DNA of 64,000 bases from positions 128,001-192,000 of IMG/VR virus record IMGVR_UViG_3300035502_000313; one strand, 5' to 3'. Positions 3,002 through 52,336 of this stretch are shown one piece after another. Origin of the DNA: a virus. Taxonomy: Duplodnaviria > Caudoviricetes. Made by a program: the position numbers and the translations under genes. The notes beneath the pieces are model-generated. The model was not told the DNA's origin. It did no database searches and saw only the letters and a list, made by a program, of their open reading frames with translations. Numbering within the stretch: position 1 is the stretch's first letter; the number at the start of each line of letters is the position of its first letter.

Positions 3002-3240
3002 TACGGTATTAATCCTCCTTCTTCTAATGCGTCTTCCATTGCATCAGCCTGAACCTGTTCCTTACCTTCTTCAGATTGCATCTTTTCATATGCTATTGTG
3101 TACAAGATTTGAAACATAGCACAAGGCATTTCATATAACTCCATAAGAGATATTCTACCTTTATAATAGGTTGAAACTTGCTCTATACGTCTTATATCTT
3201 TTTCATAAGACCCAGCTGATGACGTGTAAAAAGCATATTG
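3001..3240 (-). CDS. gp51/gpT-like chaperone extension (-1 frame of upstream gene; or a 47-aa ORF from ATG 3144)
   Basis: -1 frame open from 3240 to stop at 3001: FYTSSAGSYEKDIRRIEQVSTYYKGRISLMELYEMPCAMFQILY... Confidence 0.6.
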   Translation of the reverse strand, partial: QYAFYTSSAGSYEKDIRRIEQVSTYYKGRISLMELYEMPCAMFQILYTIAYEKMQSEEGKEQVQADAMEDALEEGGLIP

Positions 3241-4895
3241 TCAGGATTAATTTCTTGCTCGTCAATTTTTCTACCACATTTTGGACATCTGCGTTCAGGG
3301 TAGATATAAGAAATATCTCTGATAAGATTACCATTATCATCAAGCTTACCACCATCATACTTATCTGTTTCAACAGAAAGAGCCATAAGCTGGTCAGATG
3401 TCAGTGACTTAAGAATGGTATCAAATGTCTTAATACGACGCTTATATGTCAAAGACTTATCATTAACAACAGGCTTTGTATCAATAGGAATAAGCTGATT
3501 ATTAGCATAGTCAATCTTATAGATTGCATCGATGTAAGATAGTAGAAGAAGTCTATCTTCATACTTAGAGTTAAAATCCTGATTTACAAGAGTAGGTTCA
3601 ATATAAGTGTTATAAAGTGATGGAACCTTAAGAGCAAATACATACTCATCAGAAGCCTGATATAGAGTTACATTATAATCAGAGTTAGAAGAATCTGTAT
3701 TGCCTTCATGAAGAATAGTCATATATTCTTCCTTAATAGCATCAGATTCAAACTTAATCATAGAATGAATTGGAACTGATTCCATGAATACATTATTACA
3801 CTTATCATCACCACAAGAGAATGTGATAATATTAGACAAACCAAATGTAGCCTTATATGCAGTAAACATATAATCATCTACAACAGTATTAGGTGTAATC
3901 ATTGCCCAAGCTTCGAATGTCTTTGGCTTATTAGCATCAATAATATGATCATAAATAAGCTTTAGTTTGTTTTCGATATACTTGTTATAATTACTACCTC
4001 TTAAACGCTGTGGGTCGATAGACTGAATTTCCATTGGCTTCCATGCAGACATTCTAACAGCTTTCTTCTGATTCCATAGAACGCCATCTGCACATTCAAT
4101 AGCCTTAGTCTTGATATCATTGATAACCTTAGCAGCATTGATTGGCTTCTTAGCAATTGTAAAACCATTAAGATTAATAGCCTTAGAAATAGGATTGAAA
4201 GATTTCTTTACTTCCTTTCTAATTGTCTCTTTAATCTCTTCAGTCTTAGCCTTCTCATCTTCTTCCTCTTCAGAATCCTTATCATCTTCATCGTCATCTT
4301 CATCAAGATATTTCATGTCTTCATCTTCAATACCATCAAAAAGATGCTCATCTTCGTCATATACAGATTCATCAGCAGCCATAACGATAGTTTCTTTCTT
4401 AGTACCAGCAACAGGAGCTGAATTTTCAACAGTCTTTTCAATTACAACTGGAGTCTCTTCTTTTACAACAACAGGTGCTACAGGTGTAGGTTCTGGAGTA
4501 GGGGTTGTTGTTACTACAGACTGAGCAGGTTCAACCTCATCTTCAAACTTGTGTACTACAACAGTATTAGATGAAGATGCAGTTAGTTCGTCATCAGAAT
4601 CAATATCACTATCATTTACGATAGCAGCCTCGATTCTTTCTTCCTGACCTTTTCTAAAAGTTTCATTTGTTTCACTCTGTGTTCTGGCAATTGCACCATC
4701 AATTCCTTCAAATGCCTTATCAAGCATTGGATTACCTGTACCGACAATAGGCTCAGGCTTAGACTGTACTACAGCCTCAGCGATATTTGCTTCTTTTACA
4801 TTAGATGTATCTAGCTTCTTTCTTGGCATATTAGATGGAGTAGCAGTTGGAATAGCACCATTAGCAAGCTCAGATAAAGTTACATTTTCAGACAT
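3192..4895 (-). CDS. baseplate hub/tail assembly chaperone (T4 gp26-like) with long acidic N-terminus
   Basis: CGDDKC and CPKCG Zn ligands, LKVPS motif, ends ...NMLFTR; next to gp25-like gene. Confidence 0.55.
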   Translation of the reverse strand: MSENVTLSELANGAIPTATPSNMPRKKLDTSNVKEANIAEAVVQSKPEPIVGTGNPMLDKAFEGIDGAIARTQSETNETFRKGQEERIEAAIVNDSDIDSDDELTASSSNTVVVHKFEDEVEPAQSVVTTTPTPEPTPVAPVVVKEETPVVIEKTVENSAPVAGTKKETIVMAADESVYDEDEHLFDGIEDEDMKYLDEDDDEDDKDSEEEEDEKAKTEEIKETIRKEVKKSFNPISKAINLNGFTIAKKPINAAKVINDIKTKAIECADGVLWNQKKAVRMSAWKPMEIQSIDPQRLRGSNYNKYIENKLKLIYDHIIDANKPKTFEAWAMITPNTVVDDYMFTAYKATFGLSNIITFSCGDDKCNNVFMESVPIHSMIKFESDAIKEEYMTILHEGNTDSSNSDYNVTLYQASDEYVFALKVPSLYNTYIEPTLVNQDFNSKYEDRLLLLSYIDAIYKIDYANNQLIPIDTKPVVNDKSLTYKRRIKTFDTILKSLTSDQLMALSVETDKYDGGKLDDNGNLIRDISYIYPERRCPKCGRKIDEQEINPDNMLFTRHQLGLMKKI

Positions 4896-7284: not shown

Positions 7285-8913
7285 ATGGATAACAATTTTG
7301 AATCACCAGAAATACTAAATTCACTTCAGCCGATGGATGTATTTGAGTATTCTCATAGTGCATATTATTGGACTGAAGTAGACAATTGGTTTCCACAACA
7401 AGGGGAAGAAATTTTTAAGCAAACCAGAAACGCAATTATTCTTCCAGTGTCCAAGTTTTATGAAAGACCTGAGTCTTCTATGATGCTGGACTATTTTATG
7501 CTTATCTCAAAGAGATGCTACAATTCTGATGAGATCAGAAATCATATTTGTAGATATCTCAATTATTTTGAAAGATTCTATGATAAAGAACAAGAGTTAT
7601 TGTTCCATATGTATAGAATCAAGTTCATGATTGATATTGGAGTACCTACCAGTGACGGTAAGTATAGACAATATACTATGGATGAATTCAAGAATGACAT
7701 AAAAACTTATGTCCTTTCTCAGAGCATCTATAGCAAGACATGGAAAATGGTTGAGGACAATTATCAGCTTGAACTCAACTACAAAAACAAAAGCAATGAA
7801 GCTTTGCAGTACTCAGACCGTCATGGTAAATATCTGATGGAAATTAGTATCTTTATGAATATGCTTATTCCTTTGATGATGCATTTTGTATATAAGAACA
7901 AAATCACATCTACAGATGTAATTCATACACTGATTTTCACAATTTACAACTGGCTGTTTGATATTTACACCAACAAAGATATTATGGCTAAGCGTGGTCT
8001 TCAGCCTGCAGATATGTATTCTAAATTCTATGAGACATCTAGTACAACTATGGCATCTCATTATAAAACAAATGGAACACTTTGGGACATGTCTGCAATT
8101 AGAGGTCACTCACCTATAATCAATGCAAATGATGCAGTTAACACTGTTATTATGCAGGTTATGCCAAAATATACTTTTAAAGGAAACGTTATTACATACA
8201 ATATAACTTCCGTCAGAAATAATATAAAGTATAATATTTCTGATATTAGTTATGAGTATGATTACGTTTCGTTAAGCTCTTCAAAACGTGATGGAGAAGA
8301 TAATACTTCACAGTTGGATAAGTATGAAGCCCATCTTCAGAAAACTGATGAAGGACTAGCACTTCAGAACGATTACAGAGCTAAGAGAGTTATGGAAATA
8401 ATTATTTCATTCGGAGGGTATGTCAGTGATGATGAAATCAAATTTTATAGAAAACGACTTACCGAGAATGGGCAGTTTCTTATAAATCGTTTCCAACAGA
8501 ATCTTGTCAATAATATGTATTATAGATTCTTTGGAGACACAGTATCAATCAATAGTATCAATGGTGATCAGTATATCACTCTTATGATAATTGCTAAAAG
8601 ATTGTTACTGAAAAATGGTATGAAGCTATTACCGTATATAATCTCAAGTAAAGTAGTTAGAATATCTACAAGAACTTCTCTTTGTAAGAAAGAACTTATG
8701 AAGATAGAACAGTCTGAATATTATAATGACTTGCTTAGAAAGTATAATGGTAATGAAAAGATTATCAAGCAGTTTTTATCATTAATAGCAACAACCTTAT
8801 CTAGTGGTTTTAAGATTATTGATTATGATAATTCTCAGTATAATAACTATGAGGTTGTTATGGAAAGCGATATTCTCATCGATGAACTGATGAGATTTAT
8901 TCTTGCAATATAA
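7285..8913 (+). CDS. conserved jumbo-phage protein; candidate non-virion RNAP promoter-specificity subunit (phiKZ gp68/AR9 gp226-like)
   Basis: 542 aa, helical, early-type promoter TGTATATTATAAT at 7226; size fits; the ORF is solid but the function is inferred. Confidence 0.4.
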   Translation: MDNNFESPEILNSLQPMDVFEYSHSAYYWTEVDNWFPQQGEEIFKQTRNAIILPVSKFYERPESSMMLDYFMLISKRCYNSDEIRNHICRYLNYFERFYDKEQELLFHMYRIKFMIDIGVPTSDGKYRQYTMDEFKNDIKTYVLSQSIYSKTWKMVEDNYQLELNYKNKSNEALQYSDRHGKYLMEISIFMNMLIPLMMHFVYKNKITSTDVIHTLIFTIYNWLFDIYTNKDIMAKRGLQPADMYSKFYETSSTTMASHYKTNGTLWDMSAIRGHSPIINANDAVNTVIMQVMPKYTFKGNVITYNITSVRNNIKYNISDISYEYDYVSLSSSKRDGEDNTSQLDKYEAHLQKTDEGLALQNDYRAKRVMEIIISFGGYVSDDEIKFYRKRLTENGQFLINRFQQNLVNNMYYRFFGDTVSINSINGDQYITLMIIAKRLLLKNGMKLLPYIISSKVVRISTRTSLCKKELMKIEQSEYYNDLLRKYNGNEKIIKQFLSLIATTLSSGFKIIDYDNSQYNNYEVVMESDILIDELMRFILAI

Positions 8914-16809: not shown

Positions 16810-16999
16810 CTTTTTGTTCCTCCTGCCTTTTTGGCAAACTAAATTTTTAATTAACAGTCTCTGTTAATCACTAATATAATATATAACCCATAAATATTTT
16901 AAAATTCAACATATCAATAAAGCTCATATAAGGAAAGTACTTACGATGAAATTTAATAAATGATTTATATTAAAATCTCAAAAGGAGGTAATCATATCT

Positions 17000-31321: not shown

Positions 31322-31924
31322 TTATATATTCAGAAATCTCATAAATGTGCTTACATCATGTGCTTTTTTATGTGTTATAAATTTTACAGTAAAATAATCA
31401 CTACCAGTTCTATAATATAACTCTGCATCTAATTCTGTGCTTTTAGTACCAGGCAACATAGTGGGAGCTATATACATTGGTCTATTATCAATAAAGAACT
31501 TTCCTGCTCCATCTGCTGATTTTTTTATTAATACATTATTATAGAAAGTCTCATCTGTATTTAAAGAGTTTACATAAGATACATTATCAGATGTATAAAT
31601 ATCATTTGATATAGCTTTAAGAATACTCATAGCTTTATTATATTGCTGAATTGCATTATAAACTCCTATATTATCAAATGTATCTAATACACCAATATCT
31701 AATTCATATCCAATAGTCTTTTCTTTAATTACATCAACAGAATACATCTTATTGAAATATCTATCACTAATATCTTTACACTTAATCATTTTAATTCCAC
31801 TTGAATTAGGTGAGAATACTATATCTCCAAATACTGGATCTCTAGCTATATATACATAACTATCAGAAGCATTTAATTTAAATTCAGATATATATCCTCC
31901 AAGAATAGCACTTATATTAGTCAT
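31322..31924 (-). CDS. hypothetical protein coupled to DNA polymerase gene
   Basis: True start MTNISAIL with GGAGGAG RBS overlapping the polymerase stop; 200 aa. Confidence 0.7.
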   Translation of the reverse strand: MTNISAILGGYISEFKLNASDSYVYIARDPVFGDIVFSPNSSGIKMIKCKDISDRYFNKMYSVDVIKEKTIGYELDIGVLDTFDNIGVYNAIQQYNKAMSILKAISNDIYTSDNVSYVNSLNTDETFYNNVLIKKSADGAGKFFIDNRPMYIAPTMLPGTKSTELDAELYYRTGSDYFTVKFITHKKAHDVSTFMRFLNI

Positions 31925-33965
31925 TGTTAGTCTCCTCCATCTGCTTCGGTTTGCTATATAAATATCCTTCCTTAAGTGTATTAAAAATCTCTGTAAAGTT
32001 ATTAAAATCAGAACGTTTAAAATCATACTTAGGTTGATTGATAATACTCTTATCTCCGCAAGCCATTGCATGAACAATAGCAGCGTCTCTATCTGAATCA
32101 CAGAATACAAATAAAGGCTTAACCATACTATCAGGTTTATTAGATACATCATCAAAATCATGATAAGTCAATATGCCATCTGGATATCTGATATTAGTAA
32201 AGTATTCTATTACATCATCATACATTTCTTCATAACTTGCAAAATGGAACCAACGATTAAAGAATTCAATCCAGTTATGTGACTGTAGATCATCCATAAA
32301 CTGTGCTTCTCTTTTCCATTTTATTTCGTCTCTATGAAATCTATTTTCAAATTCATATACCTTATTCGGAATATTGACATGAGCAATCAAGGTTGTTCTT
32401 GACATGTTTGCTTCAGATGTGATTGATGGATAAAGGGCTTTATAATCATAATCATCCAAGTTATCATATATAGATACTGGACGTCCATTGATTTTACGTT
32501 TAGAATAATCACTGTTTAATTTAGGGTCAGCAACAAATGCACCTGGGAATGAAACTTTAGGTGTATTCTGATTTACATTGTTTCCTATAATCATTCCATA
32601 ATTATAGTATGATTTCGCTGCTCTATTCTTAAGATATACTGTTTGTCTATAAATCTTAGACCAACGTGTATTATTAAGAAGAACGTTATTATATGCTGAG
32701 TTAATATCATTAACCTTATATTCAATACAATACTGAACAATAGTATCCATGATATTATAAAATACAAATGTCTCATAATCTTTATAAGGTAATTCTGCTA
32801 AGTTCTTTGTAATATGACTATAATTAAGTTTCTTTACGCCACAAGTAATCTGTCCAATATAATCCAATTTATAACTTCCTATAGCTGCTTGTCCTTTACG
32901 TCTTGAAGCGAAATGAATCATCTGGTCTAACCATACTGAATACGAACTAATCTTTGCAAAGTCATTACGTTCTTCATACTTAAACTGATTTCTTTCATCA
33001 ATCATATAATTGACTTCTTTATATCTAAAATCAGGATGACACATAATATCTTTTGGATTAAATCCAAGATTGATAATACGCTGAATAATATACGGAACGT
33101 CGAATGCCATATTCCAAGCTAATACAAAATCAGGTTTAAGATTGTTAATATAATTAAACAATTGTCTAAGCATTTCTATTTCATCCTTTTCATCATAGAA
33201 ATGAAATACAACTTGCATTTTATCAACTCTATATTTTTTAGCTTGTTCTGGACCACCAACTGCATCAACAAGAAACTGTTTAAGTCTCATATTTAACATT
33301 GGTTCTTTTGATTCTCTTTCAAACTTCTCAATCAAAGGATTAGTATCATTTCTTAATAAGAATGAATGGATTATCAATGACTGGTCATCAATAAAAGAAA
33401 CTGCATTTATAGGACACTCGCCTAACTCTACAAAATCTCCTTTACAATTAATTGTATCTGCTTCGATATCAAGATATGCTTTTGAAGGAACTGTATAAGA
33501 ATTTTCATATGTGTGAGAAAACTGAAATCTAATATTATCTTCAATATCCATATCAGACATTAATATACTTGGGTCATAATTACACATTGTTTTATTAGCA
33601 GCTCTATTACCATTTCTACAATTGTCATAGAACTTATCTAACTTTCCAAGTCTTTCAGCAATATCCATCTGTAATTTGGAATATGGAACAATAACACATT
33701 TACAATCTTCTATCATAGCATACTCTAATGTATACTCAGGAATTTTCATATCACTTCTGAGTATATAATATTCGTACATCGGGTCTACAATAGTTTCGAG
33801 AAATTTCTCACCAGTTTTATTATCCTTAATAATAAGGTCTATAGCACCACTTTCCCATTTACCTTCATTATTCTTTCTAGGATAATGATATATCGTATTT
33901 AATAAAGATAATGGATATCCCTTAGGATATTGTCCTATGATAAAATCATTGTCGTAGTATTTCAT
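31917..33965 (-). CDS. family B DNA polymerase, N-terminal subunit (3'-5' exonuclease + motif A)
   Basis: YLDIEAD, AWNMAFDVPY, SYKLDYI, YNIMD exonuclease motifs; FPGAFV and DYKALYPS; lacks motifs B and C. Confidence 0.9.
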   Translation of the reverse strand: MKYYDNDFIIGQYPKGYPLSLLNTIYHYPRKNNEGKWESGAIDLIIKDNKTGEKFLETIVDPMYEYYILRSDMKIPEYTLEYAMIEDCKCVIVPYSKLQMDIAERLGKLDKFYDNCRNGNRAANKTMCNYDPSILMSDMDIEDNIRFQFSHTYENSYTVPSKAYLDIEADTINCKGDFVELGECPINAVSFIDDQSLIIHSFLLRNDTNPLIEKFERESKEPMLNMRLKQFLVDAVGGPEQAKKYRVDKMQVVFHFYDEKDEIEMLRQLFNYINNLKPDFVLAWNMAFDVPYIIQRIINLGFNPKDIMCHPDFRYKEVNYMIDERNQFKYEERNDFAKISSYSVWLDQMIHFASRRKGQAAIGSYKLDYIGQITCGVKKLNYSHITKNLAELPYKDYETFVFYNIMDTIVQYCIEYKVNDINSAYNNVLLNNTRWSKIYRQTVYLKNRAAKSYYNYGMIIGNNVNQNTPKVSFPGAFVADPKLNSDYSKRKINGRPVSIYDNLDDYDYKALYPSITSEANMSRTTLIAHVNIPNKVYEFENRFHRDEIKWKREAQFMDDLQSHNWIEFFNRWFHFASYEEMYDDVIEYFTNIRYPDGILTYHDFDDVSNKPDSMVKPLFVFCDSDRDAAIVHAMACGDKSIINQPKYDFKRSDFNNFTEIFNTLKEGYLYSKPKQMEETNND

Positions 33966-34036
33966 TTTTATTTCCTCCATTTACCAACGTACGCAATACG
34001 TACGTTTATATTTTATATAGTAGTTTGAGCATCTAT

Positions 34037-34165
34037 AAAAAACGACAGACATACTCCACAGCCGCCGAAACTGTGGAGATGCTGTTCTTTTGTTCTTTTA
34101 ACAGAGGAAAACAATTCTTCGCAGAGGAAATCATGTCTCAACCAGAAGGCTGATTGCTCAACCTT
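34037..34165 (-). ncRNA. putative late small RNA with two anti-SD motifs
   Basis: AACA-N6-TA at 34165-34176; terminator CTCCACAG/CTGTGGAG plus U-tract; no ORF; divergent intergenic region. Confidence 0.5.
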
Positions 34166-34240
34166 ATCTAAATGTTGATAAATATTAGCGATTTATGTGA
34201 AAAACATTTCTATAATACAATCAAAAGGAGGAAATAAAAT

Positions 34241-35197
34241 ATGGCTTATTTAAACTTTGACATTTTAAAAGGCAATACTACTTCAGATAATAAACCAGAA
34301 CAAGATTTAACTCCTACAGTTATTCCAGTGTCTGAAGGTGAAGAACCTGCAAAAAGAAAAAGAGGAAGACCTAGAAAGAGTGAGCAACAACCTCAACAAG
34401 CTACAGCAGAGATTATTCCTTCTGCTGGTACAAATCCTGTTAATACTGTTTCTATGTGTCAAACATCAGAACCGTATATTGATACTTTTAATGAAACAAA
34501 TGACATGTTAAAGTATTCTATTATGCAGTTAGATGTATTAACTTCTGATGTAAAGAATGAGTTAGATTCTATTAGAAGTTCTAAAACTCTTAAGGGTAAG
34601 TATAAGTATATTTCTGACTTATGTGCAACAGCAAGTTCTCTAGTAAGCTCTAAGATTTCTGCTATTAAAGAAATCAATGCTGTAACTCATAACTGTCATA
34701 AACTTGAACTTCAAAGGGTTAAAGATATCAAGAACTCTGCAGCTAATCAACAGGATGATGATAAGTATATTACTGACCTTTATAATGCTTACATTAATAC
34801 ACCTGTAGGAGCTGGTCCTAATCCAGCATTACAATATACATCTTCTAATGTAGCTGGTAATATGCAAGCATTAATGGGCGGTGTTAATACTATTCCTGTA
34901 AACGAAGACCAGAACTTCCAGAATTATATGAGTAATCTAACTCCTGAACAAAATAGAATGATTCTCGGAGATAAGTCCAATATTGAAACTGTAGTTGTTT
35001 ATGATCCTACAACTGGTGAAAAGTCATTTGAAGTTATTGATTCTAGTACAGGTATTTCTGTACCTAATTATCCAAGGCCAAATGCAGGACTTCTAGATGA
35101 TACTAGTATAGATATGGCTACTGGTATTGCATCTAATACAAATATTGGACAGAGTTGGAAAGTTGTCGTACTCGGAGATATGATAAACAAATTCTAA
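34241..35197 (+). CDS. hypothetical protein with AT-hook
   Basis: KRKRGRPRKS motif, central coiled coil; late promoter 34203. Confidence 0.65.
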   Translation: MAYLNFDILKGNTTSDNKPEQDLTPTVIPVSEGEEPAKRKRGRPRKSEQQPQQATAEIIPSAGTNPVNTVSMCQTSEPYIDTFNETNDMLKYSIMQLDVLTSDVKNELDSIRSSKTLKGKYKYISDLCATASSLVSSKISAIKEINAVTHNCHKLELQRVKDIKNSAANQQDDDKYITDLYNAYINTPVGAGPNPALQYTSSNVAGNMQALMGGVNTIPVNEDQNFQNYMSNLTPEQNRMILGDKSNIETVVVYDPTTGEKSFEVIDSSTGISVPNYPRPNAGLLDDTSIDMATGIASNTNIGQSWKVVVLGDMINKF

Positions 35198-47198: not shown

Positions 47199-49424
47199 TT
47201 AACCCATGAACTTAAATAACTTATCTGTATTAGATTCAGATTCAGTAAGAGGCTCTTCTGATAAGAACTTCTGAGGCTGTACCATATACAATAAATCATA
47301 TGCGGAAGGCTCATGTTTCTTGAATGATAAAGGAGAATAAAGCATTCTTGCAATATCCTCTGACTGAAGTGATATACTAATATTTGGATGAGTACTGATA
47401 GCCTTTTTAAGAGTAAGAATCTGATAATTAGTTTGTTCAGGAACAGACCAATCAGGCATACTAATAATATCATCTCCAGAACGAATCTGATTCATAATAA
47501 TGATTTCAAGATGAACACTCATTATATTATCAAGTCCAATGTTATTAAGTTTATTACTAAGAGTTTCAAGGAATGTCTCAGCAGTATAACTATCTGTATT
47601 AGCCTTAAGGTTAATAACTTTAATTACAGATTCAAGTCTTTCACTCATATCATCATTATGAATAGAACCAATTGTAAATAAAGGATTATTATCACCAATA
47701 AGAGCAGATACTGGAAGAATAATATCTTCATCAATATCATTAAGATTCTTTAACTTGATATATTCTGTAAGCCAATCACTAAGATAGAAATTATCAACAT
47801 TAGAAGTTTTGATTGGATATTCTTCTCCAGTTGAGTCATTTCTCAGATAGAATATATTGATATACTTCATTGTATCTTCGAAGCTTGTATCAATATCATC
47901 ATCATTCTCGTCATTCTCAAGAGATGCAAGAATCTCTTCTTGAATATCTCCATCTCTAATAACAAGTTTCCATTTCTTTACATCTTCAAATTCTGGATTA
48001 ATAAATATTGTTCCTTCATCAACCATGATAAACTCAGAAATCTTTTCTTCAGATAAACATGAAGTATCAAAAGTAACACTATTAATTTTAGCTTCAAGAA
48101 GATGTTTAGCAGACAACATCATCTGTGTCAATGGTTCTGTAAGGTTAGTTACACTATATACTCCAATCTTTACAGCTGGAACAATACTATATAATTCTCC
48201 CATACATTTACGACAAATACCAAGTCCCATTGCTGCTGACTTACACTTAATAGGACTTCTAAGATAAATCTCTTTTCCAATAAGGTCAGAGTTATCTCTC
48301 ATAGCTTGATATACATTGCTGATTCTTTTTTCCATTCCAAAAGGATTAAGACGATAATATCTATCAGCAATTTTCTTAAGTGCAGTTTCATCACTTACCT
48401 TATATTTAAGAAAGTTTCTTGTACCACAATCATAAGAAGGATCAAGTTTATTTGTATACGGAATAGTATACTTATTCGTCTGAGAACAGTTCAATGTCAT
48501 TATTCGAGAGAACTGTCCTGAACGAGCAGTATTTTTCTTTGAAAGAATCTGTGCAATACGTGCAATCAGAGACTCAAGAATATGAAATGCAACATTATTT
48601 GCACCTCCATTAATATAATTGGTATTAACTACATATGGGAAGATACCTCCTTCACCATTTGGTTTAACACCAATATTAGTATACATTTCACGAGCCTGTT
48701 TAGGTTTGATACCTTCTTTAGCACGGAATGCATCTGACAAACAATGGTCACGACCAATATACTGTTTAGCATTAACGATATAATCTACAAGTCTATTCAT
48801 ATCATTAAGTGCTTCAGCATTCATTTGTTCTACTGGGAACTGAGAATAATAGTTAGTTTTGTGTCTATCCATTATCTCTTTGAATCCAGGACAATTGTTA
48901 TACATAAGAATAAAGTCCTCATTATTGATACTATTATTGAAGAACCATGCAAATTGGTCAACAAACTTAAGGTTTCTCAAAGTATCATAGATAACTCTAT
49001 TAAGGTTATGAATGATCATAACATCATTGTTCTTACCACATTCCTCTCTTACAGGAATAATAGCAAACTTATCAATGTACTCCTTAATATAACCATTAGT
49101 AATACCGTCCTTATTAAAGAAGACATGATAAGGTTTAATTTTCTGCTTGGTTTTTATTATAAAACCCCAAACGATAATGTTTGTTAAGGCATATGCAAGA
49201 GGAAGCCTTACACTCATTCCGTTGTCAAAAACGAATTCGATTTTTGTATTCTGAACTGATGTTATCTCAATATAGTCCAGAAATACATCTTTAAGATTGT
49301 TTGTATAGTCATCAATGGTTTCTTCAGTGATGTCTGATACATTGATACTAATAGGTTTACCGTATACCACTGGTGTAAAGATACCATAATCGTATACAGT
49401 TGTTTCAGGTGAGTTATTATTCAT
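47199..49424 (-). CDS. RNA polymerase beta' C-terminal subunit (non-virion RNAP, phiKZ gp74/AR9 gp154-like)
   Basis: Bridge helix KNTARSGQFSR, RSPIKC...ICRKCMG Zn site, trigger loop EPLTQMMLSAKH, SVHLEIII; early-type promoter. Confidence 0.9.
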   Translation of the reverse strand: MNNNSPETTVYDYGIFTPVVYGKPISINVSDITEETIDDYTNNLKDVFLDYIEITSVQNTKIEFVFDNGMSVRLPLAYALTNIIVWGFIIKTKQKIKPYHVFFNKDGITNGYIKEYIDKFAIIPVREECGKNNDVMIIHNLNRVIYDTLRNLKFVDQFAWFFNNSINNEDFILMYNNCPGFKEIMDRHKTNYYSQFPVEQMNAEALNDMNRLVDYIVNAKQYIGRDHCLSDAFRAKEGIKPKQAREMYTNIGVKPNGEGGIFPYVVNTNYINGGANNVAFHILESLIARIAQILSKKNTARSGQFSRIMTLNCSQTNKYTIPYTNKLDPSYDCGTRNFLKYKVSDETALKKIADRYYRLNPFGMEKRISNVYQAMRDNSDLIGKEIYLRSPIKCKSAAMGLGICRKCMGELYSIVPAVKIGVYSVTNLTEPLTQMMLSAKHLLEAKINSVTFDTSCLSEEKISEFIMVDEGTIFINPEFEDVKKWKLVIRDGDIQEEILASLENDENDDDIDTSFEDTMKYINIFYLRNDSTGEEYPIKTSNVDNFYLSDWLTEYIKLKNLNDIDEDIILPVSALIGDNNPLFTIGSIHNDDMSERLESVIKVINLKANTDSYTAETFLETLSNKLNNIGLDNIMSVHLEIIIMNQIRSGDDIISMPDWSVPEQTNYQILTLKKAISTHPNISISLQSEDIARMLYSPLSFKKHEPSAYDLLYMVQPQKFLSEEPLTESESNTDKLFKFMG

Positions 49425-49508
49425 TTTATATACCTCCTAGATATACATAGATTATTTGATAGTTTTTGAATATGTCATTTCCTATCATATCTATAATATA
49501 TCAATAAG

Positions 49509-49585
49509 AAAAAAGTTGAGCAGTAGCCGAAGCCACTGCTCTGCTCAAGAAAGGAATGTACTCTATAGTAGAAGAAATCTACTTT
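49509..49585 (-). ncRNA. putative late small RNA (or structured 3' UTR) with anti-SD
   Basis: AACA-N6-TA at 49585-49596, 5' hairpin, CATTCCTTTCTT, terminator GAGCAGTGGC-TTCG-GCTACTGCTC. Confidence 0.35.
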
Positions 49586-49600
49586 ACATATATGTTATAA

Positions 49601-50059
49601 TTAGTGTCTTGTTTTACCCATTTCTTTAGGCTGGAGCTTAGGTGTAGAAACAGCCTTAGCACCCTGACCAGAAACATACATACGCTGACCCTTACGAGCA
49701 GCAACCTGTGCCTTACTAGCATACTTCTTCTTGATAGCAGCTAAAAGCTTACGTTCCTGAATACGATTCTTAACCAACTTCTTCCAAAGAGTGTCGTTGT
49801 TGTCCTTAGCAAGCTGTAAAGCAGCCATACCTGTACGACGTGTAAGATCATCATTCTTATTAAGTCTTACAATTGTCTTTCTGCTAATCTTCTTAGCTTC
49901 CATAAGAACATCTGCCTGCTCAAGAAGTTCACGCTTGTCGGCATCAGAATCAGAATAATGATCATCATAGAAGAAAGCTTCCTGAAGCTCATCCATATTT
50001 AGATTCATTGTAATTTCCTGAGAATCAGCTATTGCTTGTGCGTTTGTATAAAGTCCCAT
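49601..50059 (-). CDS. basic virion protein with acidic propeptide
   Basis: Strong codon bias, VLMEA site then Lys/Arg-rich body, late promoter 50144. Confidence 0.55.
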   Translation of the reverse strand: MGLYTNAQAIADSQEITMNLNMDELQEAFFYDDHYSDSDADKRELLEQADVLMEAKKISRKTIVRLNKNDDLTRRTGMAALQLAKDNNDTLWKKLVKNRIQERKLLAAIKKKYASKAQVAARKGQRMYVSGQGAKAVSTPKLQPKEMGKTRH

Positions 50060-50239: not shown

Positions 50240-52336
50240 ATGGATATTACGCAGATAGTCAACAGCAAGACAACGGACATTTATAAAAAAGAAATGATTG
50301 ATGCTCTTAAGCTTTCATTTCCAGGACTCACAGAGAAGGATATCAAAGAAGCTATAGATTATTCTATTATTAAACGTGGTTCTGATAGTAAGGCAGTACT
50401 CGATAATAACTATACGAAGACAAAAGAGAATAGAACTTTGTTTGAGGTTACAGATTATATAATTCAGAGAGAACCAATTATAACTGTATCTGGAGTTATG
50501 TTTAGAAGACATGGTTATTGTCCTAATCCGTTTGTTATGCTTATTCAGGAGTTTCTTAAACAAAGAGGTATTTATAAAGATACTATGTTTAAGTATCCTA
50601 AGGGTTCTGAAGAATTTGAAAAGTATAACATTCTTCAGCTTTCCGAGAAAGTATCAGGCAATGCAATGTATGGTGCTTCTGGTAATCATACAAGTATATT
50701 CTATAATCTTTATGTTGCACAAAGTATTACTATGCAGGGAAGAAGTTGTATTGCATCAGCAATTATGTTATTTGAAGCTACAATGGCAAATAATGTAAAG
50801 TTCTGTGGTCTTAATGAGGTAATTACATTCATCAATAATGTAAGAAGAGAATCAATCATTAATTATCCTGATGAAGTGATTATTGATAAAGATAAGTATG
50901 TAAGTGTAGAAGAATGTTTCTTTAAGATTATTTATAGTAGTGGATTTTATTGGATTCCTACTGAAAAAGAAATGACTCTTATTTGGGATATTCTTAATCA
51001 GTGCAATCAGCATGAACTAAATAAATTATTCTATAAGAATAATTTATTCTGGTTTGTAGATAATAGTGTAGTTATGAATAAGATTATATCTATTCTTTCT
51101 ACATTAGATGTGCCATTTATTGACCCTAATCATCCACCAAAGTGTATAGAAGACTCGGTAAATGAATTATATGATATGATATATGAATGGGTGTATTATG
51201 ATAAACAATATATGGATAGAATAGATAGAACAGAGAATATGTATCGTTGTGTTTCTATGCTTACTGATACAGATAGTTGTTTTATATCATTTGATGGATG
51301 GTATCGTTATATTCTTGATAAGACATTTAATATTCCTATGAAGATTAAAGAGATTGAGATTGATGAGAAAACTGGTAATGTAGATAAAGCATTCGATGTA
51401 GCATATGATTATGATTTCTATACAGATGAAATTATCGAATCTCAGAATATTATTCGTCCAGACGTTGTATCTCCTCAGGTAGGATTCAGATGTAGTATTA
51501 TTAATATTCTCGCAAGTATTATGGGTAGACTTGCTATAGATTATATGGGTAAATATTCTGATAATTCAAATACAACTAAATGTGAAGATGGTTCTAGACG
51601 TAAGAGTTTCTTTATATTAAAGAATGAATTCCAACTTAAACGTGCTCTCATCACAGATGGAAAAAAGAATTACTGTGCATATCAAGAACGTCAAGAGTCT
51701 AATATCATTCCTAGAGAAAAAGCATTAGCTATTACAGGTATGCCGATTAAAAAGGTTGGTGTTCCAGAATCTACTAAAGTAAGACTTCAGAAGATTCTTC
51801 TTGAACAAATACTTGATAATCCTGGAGAAATATCTCAGGTAGAAATAGTTAAACAACTTGCAATTCTTGAGAAACAGATTATAGAAGCTATTCATAATGG
51901 TAGTAAAGAATACTTTAAACCAGAAAGAATAAAAGCATTAGATGCATATGATAATCCTATGAGAGAATCTGGTGTAAAAGCTGCTGTAGCATTTAACTTT
52001 CTTAAAGACGATGATATGGAACCTATAGACCTTAATACAAGAAATAGTATTCTTAATATAAAGATAGATATTAATAATAAGAATATTGATGATCTTAGAG
52101 AAAGTCGTCCAGATGTATATGCTAAGGTTGTTGAACTTATGAAAAGAAAAGAATATGCTAAAGGAATCACTGGAATTGCAATTCTTGATGATATGCAAGT
52201 TCCTGAATGGATAAAAGATTATATTGACTATACTACAATAGTAAATGATAATCTTCATACATTCCCATGTGAAGCTATTGGTATAGATAGAAGAGAGAAT
52301 GATAATATAAACTTTACAAATATTTTGAGATTTTAA
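50240..52336 (+). CDS. family B DNA polymerase, C-terminal subunit
   Basis: EKVSGNAMYG (motif B), ITMQGR, TDTDS (motif C), KKNY. Confidence 0.9.
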   Translation: MDITQIVNSKTTDIYKKEMIDALKLSFPGLTEKDIKEAIDYSIIKRGSDSKAVLDNNYTKTKENRTLFEVTDYIIQREPIITVSGVMFRRHGYCPNPFVMLIQEFLKQRGIYKDTMFKYPKGSEEFEKYNILQLSEKVSGNAMYGASGNHTSIFYNLYVAQSITMQGRSCIASAIMLFEATMANNVKFCGLNEVITFINNVRRESIINYPDEVIIDKDKYVSVEECFFKIIYSSGFYWIPTEKEMTLIWDILNQCNQHELNKLFYKNNLFWFVDNSVVMNKIISILSTLDVPFIDPNHPPKCIEDSVNELYDMIYEWVYYDKQYMDRIDRTENMYRCVSMLTDTDSCFISFDGWYRYILDKTFNIPMKIKEIEIDEKTGNVDKAFDVAYDYDFYTDEIIESQNIIRPDVVSPQVGFRCSIINILASIMGRLAIDYMGKYSDNSNTTKCEDGSRRKSFFILKNEFQLKRALITDGKKNYCAYQERQESNIIPREKALAITGMPIKKVGVPESTKVRLQKILLEQILDNPGEISQVEIVKQLAILEKQIIEAIHNGSKEYFKPERIKALDAYDNPMRESGVKAAVAFNFLKDDDMEPIDLNTRNSILNIKIDINNKNIDDLRESRPDVYAKVVELMKRKEYAKGITGIAILDDMQVPEWIKDYIDYTTIVNDNLHTFPCEAIGIDRRENDNINFTNILRF

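Follow-up and report, generated by a model that had tools for sequence, protein, structure and literature searches.

In low-GC Gram-positive bacteria, several small RNAs carry open C-rich seeds that are complementary to ribosome-binding sites; examples are RsaE/RoxS and the hairpins of RNAIII. In phages P1 and P7, the c4 antisense RNA recognises defined complementary sites in its own operon and shuts off translation. To our knowledge, the small RNAs of lytic phages have been little explored, and for giant phages there are only transcript maps with unexplained short RNAs. A study of 201phi2-1 and phiKZ describes short transcripts that end soon after their start site, are conserved upstream of homologous genes and have no known function; an example is sRNA005, upstream of the gp277/gp182 tail gene (PMC11512511).

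For phage AR9, the late promoters have been defined as AACA-N6-TA/G and the early promoters as AAATATATATTAT-N6-G (PMC5312081). In the late class, AACA occupies positions -11 to -8 and is followed by six free bases and by T and A/G at -1/+1 (PMC5312081). Position -8 is essential in vitro, where AACT abolishes transcription (PMC5449584). RNA-seq of AR9 further revealed strong termination at predicted terminators in vivo (PMC5312081), and the late units of this phage have long 5' UTRs, with some of the late transcripts being non-coding antisense RNAs (PMC5312081, PMC5449584).

Here we considered a locus in a DNA stretch of 64,000 nucleotides (the window), which represents positions 128001-192000 of a single-contig phage genome of 212,182 bp with a G+C content of ~30% (G000). 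This genome encodes RNA polymerase beta-like subunits and a split DNA polymerase, with an N half (DNA pol-N; 31917-33965, minus strand) and a C half (DNA pol-C; 50240-52336, plus strand). Its nearest cultured relatives are the Bacillus phages AR9, PBS1 and BpSp, at ~31% polymerase identity, and the only relatives closer than these are contigs from human-gut and rumen metagenomes. All phages that bear the unit described below are metagenomic, and the RNA unit was read from sequence alone. Around DNA pol-N, we noted a 279-aa ORF without a family match (31322-32161, minus strand) that shares 245 nt with the 3' end of the DNA pol-N ORF. The alignment of the AR9 homologue stops at about residue 580 of 682, so that DNA pol-N may truly end elsewhere, or a frameshift or overlap may be involved. 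In one related phage the DNA pol-N gene is split by a group I intron (L005:5461-5828; Rfam RF00028, 77 bits), and this explains why the tblastn match of that phage contains stop codons. A gp226-like gene (7285-8913) gave no match when compared with solved structures by phmmer, and a link to AR9 gp226 is not relied on.

The unit lies between DNA pol-N and a divergent AT-hook gene (Table 1). For this gap, the initial annotation had proposed a perfect AACA-TTTAGA-TA promoter on the minus strand with +1 at about 34165, two copies of an anti-Shine-Dalgarno motif, and a strong terminator with no gene to stop, and all three elements were found in place. We infer the transcription start of the unit from the AR9-type motif, and AACATTTARATAAGG at this distal promoter is kept in 15 relatives in the alignment. 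The anti-Shine-Dalgarno sequence, present as CU motifs 1 and 2, is found three times in the whole window against 0.44 expected copies, a count that was reached by 1 of 100 shuffles. A CAU stands 2 nt ahead of CU motif 1, so that the whole stretch mirrors a ribosome-binding site plus AUG; its complement is GAGGAAAUCAUGUCUCAACCAG. The terminator consists of a lower stem (ACAG/CUGU) and an upper stem (CUCCACAG/CUGUGGAG), followed by CG and a U6 run that begins 2 nt past the stem, and its hairpin has a folding energy of -21 kcal/mol. A simple terminator scanner missed this terminator (34085-34037), probably owing to a loop of 9 nt. No gene on the minus strand precedes the terminator for it to stop, and the neighbour at 34241 is divergent; the promoter of this neighbour accounts for a conserved block to the right of the unit. 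As a separate observation, GGUUGAG is found twice on the minus strand (at 34146-34165 and 34137-34143), and the 3' arm UCAGCC of the 5' hairpin P1 has the choice of pairing with one or the other. L001 offers a similar choice, with CAACC facing two GGUUG. This arrangement may reflect a bistable 5' end or the trace of a duplication.

Table 1. Features of the small-RNA unit and of the flanking DNA, in window coordinates.
Feature	Position	Strand	Basis or remark
Distal late promoter AACA-TTTAGA-TA (AR9-type, phage RNA polymerase)	34165..34176	-	Predicted start 34165; AACA at 34176-34173
5' hairpin P1, 20 nt, AAGGUUGA-GCAA-UCAGCCUU	34146..34165	-	Predicted fold, begins at +1
Conserved single-stranded block CUGGUUGAGACAUGA, runs into CU motif 1	34131..34145	-	Alignments
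CU motif 1, UUUCCUCUG	34122..34130	-	Sequence match
CU motif 2, UUUCCUCUG, conserved AUUGUU just before	34102..34110	-	Sequence match, alignment
Intrinsic terminator	34037..34085	-	Hairpin 34085-34045, U6 at 34042-34037
Divergent late promoter AACA-TTTCTA-TA of AT-hook gene (34241-35197)	34203..34214	+	Motif match
Proximal late promoter of DNA pol-N, AACT-ACTATA-TA	34014..34025	-	Predicted start 34014
Hairpin AACGUACG-UAUUG-CGUACGUU in DNA pol-N leader	33986..34006	-	Just ahead of ribosome-binding site; gene's own leader, not small RNA
Ribosome-binding site GGAGGAAAU and ATG of DNA pol-N (31917-33965)	33963..33978	-	GAGGAAA at 33971-33977

The promoter class itself is well represented in this phage. 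Across the 212-kb genome, 52 of the 217 AACA-N6-TA sites (24%) are intergenic as compared with 7.9% of the DNA, and the sites are mostly located 18-35 nt ahead of a start codon. AACT-N6-TA is likewise enriched, at 17-33 nt ahead of start codons in G000; judged from this usage, the late RNA polymerase of the studied phage seems to be more tolerant at -8 than that of AR9. An AR9-like early motif, TTATATATTAT(A/T)(A/T)TAGTGAT, has about 20 copies in G000, typically 55-71 nt before genes, with examples at window positions 16876, 11615, 2623 and 771. This motif is absent from the gap between DNA pol-N and its neighbour (33966-34240). An early promoter for DNA pol-N was therefore rejected, the more so since the conserved AAAC.A.TATATAA block in the gap is a late-type promoter. 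That a late RNA would for this reason be a repressor of earlier genes does not follow, because DNA pol-N and its divergent neighbour share the same promoter class.

Fifteen distinct relatives, with polymerase identities of 72-86%, have the unit at the same site ahead of DNA pol-N, and the features kept among them are the promoter, the CUGGUUGA..CAUGA block, the UUCCUC motifs, and the terminator with its T-run. At each of the two motif sites, UUCCUC is present in 12 of 13 distinct sequences, with one motif missing in L018; the motifs occur in two or more copies and their spacing varies between 18 and 24 nt. The predicted probability of being unpaired is mostly 0.33-0.93 for CU motif 1 across homologues, and lower for motif 2 in some lineages. 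RNAalifold detected compensatory changes in the terminator stem, at 7 of its 10 pairs. Conservation of the T-run is confined to the minus strand, which fixes the strand of the unit. Covariation and conservation of the CU motifs had both been named in the initial annotation as points to check, and both speak for the unit. A hairpin that starts at +1 to +3 was found in 16 of 16 homologues examined. These 5' hairpins were checked individually, since their lengths differ; their 3' arms differ as well and pair with different registers of a constant 5' end. Nucleotide identity to the window unit ranges from 0.64 to 0.88, versus 0.47-0.58 at silent-type third positions of the adjoining polymerase gene, and from this slower change the region of the unit is under purifying selection.

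According to nhmmer searches, each genome has one copy of the unit. Rfam gave no match in or near 34037-34176 above noise at E up to 10, and nothing at gathering scores for the units of the relatives. A pattern scan of IMG/VR returned 39 stretches, among which only four already-known lineages were homologous, the rest being antisense of coding or start regions. Paralogues or mobility of the unit were rejected on these grounds, that is, the single copy per genome and the antisense nature of the other IMG/VR matches. A replication origin primed by the transcript of the unit was also rejected, because the cumulative GC-skew minimum is at ~135 kb and the unit is at 162 kb. As far as sequence comparison can tell, the locus is a conserved non-coding promoter-to-terminator unit, whose anatomy, conservation, covariation and single copy are directly visible in the genomes compared. 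It forms a new family within a kind that is already known.

In clades at 54-59% polymerase identity (L005; L004/L006/L023), the same site is occupied by a differently sequenced unit whose layout is unchanged: a late promoter comes first, then a hairpin at +1 as the 5' element, a pair of CCUC(C/U) motifs that are mostly unpaired, and a 3' hairpin. The motif pairs are ACACCUCC and AUUCCUCU in the L005 clade, and GUCCUCCU and ACCUCUCU in the L004/L006/L023 clade. Since a covariance model of the unit recognised the close clade only, and not the units of L004, L005 and L024, the homology of these latter units is drawn from position and layout alone. The L024 unit is an exception in that it has UUUCCUUU in place of CCUC. 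In L004 and L023, where the proximal promoter is AACC, the 3' hairpin is not followed by a clear U-run, and the RNA may therefore be a leader in that clade. In phages with at most 50% polymerase identity, the same two genes again diverge, separated by a short gap that has one promoter in each direction and lacks the unit. The most persistent feature in this comparison is the CCUC core, which mirrors GAGG/GGAGG and provides the best argument that the motifs are likely to be the working part of the RNA. In the phage with the seed GUCCUCC, moreover, GGAGGAC is found in 7.9% of start regions versus 1.5-3.7% in the others. This match between seed and ribosome-site signature is suggestive, and co-variation of seed and signature at the gene level was not significant (3 pairs with both, 6 and 12 with a single one, and 81 with neither).

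To look for targets, each phage's own RNA core was scored against all of its start regions in six phage genomes, in which genes and start regions were called crudely. The GAGGAAA matches listed in the initial annotation are all present; they belong to the ribosome-binding sites of both polymerase halves (DNA pol-N, 33971-33977; DNA pol-C, 50227) and of the genes that start at 4895, 8984, 20459 and 34241. GAGGAAA is not rare, as it occurs in ~8% of the start regions of the genome. The best-scoring start regions in the window phage were those of an RNAP beta-like gene, a 567-aa gene (3192-4895; start region GAGGAAATCATATGTCT), and an 88-aa gene. The label of tail chaperone that had been given to the 567-aa gene found no support in Pfam or PHROGs. 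For the 88-aa gene (phrog_918), which lies outside the window, we observed a 14-nt perfect complement (AGAGGAAAACAAUU) between CU motif 2 and the start region (G000 118747-118760; L114:1248-1261, minus strand; blastn-short E 0.046 against the genome), and this match was not kept in three sister phages. All three genes were rejected as specific targets, since their complementarity past GAGGAA[AU] is phage-specific and shrinks in sister phages. Conservation of the named targets thus did not hold up, the match to the 567-aa gene beyond GAGGAA[AU] being specific to the window phage.

The genome-wide comparison gave a similar picture. All six genomes had 93 gene groups in common; the best mean z among these was -1.21, and 678 of 2000 permutations were at least as low. 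DNA pol-N was a poor predicted trans target, with ranks of 104/173, 169/197, 44/187 and 42/200. Perfect complements of at least 7 nt were found in 16-25% of start regions versus 8-16% of internal coding windows, with 13-15% for shuffled cores; start sites are thus weakly enriched for complementarity. A specific conserved phage target is not supported by these tests, which covered phage genes, while a general affinity of the RNA for GAGG-type sites is possible on the sequence evidence. Of the trans-acting repressor that had been proposed, the discrete, non-coding and conserved unit with mostly open CCUC motifs stands, and the conserved phage target does not.

The unit most likely encodes a small RNA of ~125-130 nt in which the two open CCUC motifs are the selected feature, and pairing with ribosome-binding sites would be the most economical mechanism. 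We tentatively favour the possibility that it is an independent non-coding RNA gene of this length whose CCUC cores pair with ribosome-binding sites and block ribosome entry, and we give this reading a little less than an even chance. In this model, the phage's own RNA polymerase would start at the AACA-N6-TA promoter (+1 ~34165), the 5' end of the RNA would be a protective hairpin, and ~60 open nucleotides would then display the two UUCCUCU motifs before the RNA ends at the strong intrinsic terminator with its U-run at 34042-34037. The CCUC cores, which mirror the GGAGG/GAGG ribosome-binding sites of the phage, would pair with these sites and thereby prevent ribosomes from entering, and start regions with GAGG then AA(A/U) would be favoured by the RNA. 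The same motifs might also serve as a safety lock, in that read-through would mask the DNA pol-N site and leave translation to the transcripts that begin at the proximal promoter. Use of the promoter, by analogy with AR9, and termination are predicted here, as are the folding and pairing of the RNA and whatever effect it has on translation.

The unit might alternatively be a cis-acting leader or attenuator of DNA pol-N, in which the terminator and the CCUC motifs would tune the amount of polymerase obtained from the distal promoter. The short RNA would then be no more than a by-product of premature termination, comparable to short 5'UTR-derived transcripts of giant Pseudomonas phages. Its location is consistent with this, as it is on the same strand and directly upstream of DNA pol-N, and always at that gene, and short premature-termination RNAs upstream of conserved genes have been described for 201phi2-1 and phiKZ (PMC11512511). 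When the read-through transcript was folded, the DNA pol-N ribosome-binding site paired with a CCUCU motif in 9 of 9 lineages, and its probability of being unpaired was 0.00-0.26 as compared with 0.58-0.91 in the transcript from the proximal promoter (0.02 versus 0.91 in the window phage); the long fold had a z of -4.4. Terminator escape is thereby predicted to yield an untranslatable polymerase message. In folding programs any free CCUCU pairs with any free GGAGG, however, so that masking in 9 of 9 lineages is expected and does not discriminate. The L004 and L023 units would also fit a leader, by their missing U-run and AACC proximal promoter as well as by the match of motif 1 to the polymerase start over 9 nt (AGGAGGACU). 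Against a leader stands the strength of the terminator (-21 kcal/mol, U6), for which no conserved competing or antiterminator pairing was noticed upon folding and reading of the sequences; Rfam likewise gave no aptamer, riboswitch or leader family. Importantly for this question, all close relatives have a second late-type promoter, a conserved hairpin and a ribosome-binding site between the terminator and the DNA pol-N start; this proximal promoter is of the same class as the distal one and mostly reads AACA-AATATA-TA, with AACT in the window and in L007. Moreover, L013 (1370-1520) equals L014 (1230-1520) minus exactly 145 nt between the two promoters, with flanks that are 100% identical and one fused promoter retained. 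The loss of the whole unit in this natural variant means that phages can do without it in at least some settings, a point against the favoured small-RNA gene. The phages at or below 50% identity, which have the same gene pair without the unit, speak against a leader. The second promoter and the clean deletion in L013 favour a separate small RNA over a required leader, in line with the stand-alone RNA of the initial annotation, itself a prediction from sequence. The unit behaves as a self-contained insertion, made up of the RNA body, a terminator and a promoter copy, that would not be needed for transcription of the polymerase gene. We consider a leader unlikely, while according it appreciable weight.

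Other explanations concern what the CU motifs or the surrounding DNA might be instead. The open motifs could have a binding partner other than phage messages, either a factor from host or phage or an RNA of the host, which would be consistent with the conserved core CCUC(C/U), with motifs that come in two or more copies at a variable spacing of 18-24 nt, and with the absence of a conserved phage target from our tests. L005 carries CACCUCC, which we take to resemble the 3' tail of 16S rRNA, and a protein or nuclease that recognises this pyrimidine-rich tail would be a candidate partner. The sequence gives no hint of any one protein, however, and a decoy or protein-binding RNA seems rather improbable to us. 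The unit could also be a by-product of promoter duplication, possibly including an inverted copy of a start region, and as such neutral DNA or a transcriptional insulator. Two promoters of the same type do bound it, loss by recombination between them is possible, and the first CU segment is similar to the start region of the AT-hook gene when this is read in antisense (CAU..AUUUCCUC), a kind of pattern that often arises as the antisense of GAGGAA codons or start regions in unrelated phages. Such an origin is hard to reconcile with a unit that evolves more slowly than silent sites, maintains its hairpins by compensatory change and retains CCUC where the remaining sequence has been replaced, and we hold it to be very unlikely. 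Finally, we give almost no credence to a small protein encoded by the unit, either as the plus-strand peptide MSQPEG or as one of the minus-strand ORFs of 33 and 42 aa. The plus-strand frame does have a strong GAGGAAAUC-AUG ahead of it, and the relatives have short open frames of 16-28 codons on this strand. Comparison of the relatives for length, frame and sequence nevertheless revealed no conserved reading frame on either strand: the plus-strand frames range from 6 to 28 aa with unrelated sequences, and those on the minus strand from 0 to 76 aa. No promoter was found on the plus strand upstream of the MSQPEG frame, the minus-strand ATG has no ribosome-binding site, and ORFs this short are expected by chance in AT-rich DNA. 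The block at 34131-34145 is conserved at the nucleotide and not at the peptide level, with indels that are not multiples of three. The earlier statement that the RNA has no ORF is thus literally incorrect but holds in the sense that none is conserved, and MSQPEG, expression of which had been put forward as a refutation of the RNA, is not conserved in length, frame or sequence.

Two further observations were made outside the unit. A second orphan unit is located at 49508-49596 (minus strand). Its promoter, AACA-TATATG-TA, directly follows the stop of the gene at 49601, and the unit continues with a 5' hairpin, an open stretch (AUUCCUUUCUU) and a terminator that has a UUCG loop and U6; next comes the early promoter of the RNAP beta-like gene at 49424. 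In the whole genome, only about four units of this kind, running from a late promoter to a terminator, were found. In addition, four genes of DNA metabolism have a (C/U)GUACG(C/U)AWU hairpin or motif immediately ahead of their ribosome-binding site, namely DNA pol-N (window 33986-34006, minus strand), an SbcC-like nuclease subunit, a UvsX-like recombinase, and a dCTP deaminase (G000 29057, 40747 and 9731; L198, L199 and L200), and it is kept before DNA pol-N even in distant relatives. By analogy, this motif looks like a shared translational operator of a replication regulon, in the manner of T4 RegA/gp43.

More widely, jumbo phages with their own RNA polymerases might have a widespread, undescribed class of small RNAs that expose the docking sequence of the ribosome itself and reprogramme translation in that they mask ribosome-binding sites, with seeds that drift along with the ribosome-site signature of each phage; the unit described here would be one family of this class. 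This wider reading derives from two hints, the CCUC kept amid replaced sequence and the combination of GUCCUCC seed and GGAGGAC signature in one clade, and we regard it as speculative and unlikely to hold in general. A conserved RNA at a DNA polymerase gene that mirrors a ribosome-binding site is a candidate for translation control at the RNA level, in phages that already bring their own transcription machinery. Action in trans would mean a further level of timing control on top of the two phage RNA polymerases, and action in cis would illustrate how tandem promoters are insulated from each other. The interest would be higher if the class proves to be general among giant phages. Ready material for comparison exists in the variant with the natural deletion and in the divergent units that occupy the same site.

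With respect to the known systems, the unit resembles RsaE/RoxS and RNAIII in having its own promoter and terminator, in being non-coding, and in displaying several open pyrimidine-rich motifs. It has no sequence or structure homology to RsaE/RoxS and no Rfam match, it is phage-encoded and would be read by a phage RNA polymerase, and its motif is UUCCUCU, as opposed to UCCC/CCCC in RsaE/RoxS; defined conserved targets of the unit were not found in our comparison of phage genes. The analogy with RsaE drawn in the initial annotation thus applies to the design and not to a shared Rfam family. Like c4 of P1/P7, it is a phage small RNA whose proposed action is to pair with phage messages in their ribosome-binding region and so to shut off their translation; unlike c4, it showed no conserved specific site in our tests, and no Rfam C4 match. 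It shares the AACA-N6-TA promoter class with AR9, in which the DNA pol-N homologue g132 differs by having an early promoter, another gene context and no such unit, and the studied phage also uses AACT, which AR9 does not in vitro (PMC5449584). The RNAs of 201phi2-1 and phiKZ differ in that they were seen experimentally, belong to Pseudomonas phages and have another promoter type, whereas the present one is a prediction from genome sequences; a second promoter separates our unit from the gene, and a CCUC seed is not known to have been reported for theirs (PMC11512511). These RNAs and the unit described here nevertheless have in common a short promoter-to-terminator layout right upstream of a gene that is conserved, the same location in related jumbo phages, and a conserved fold.
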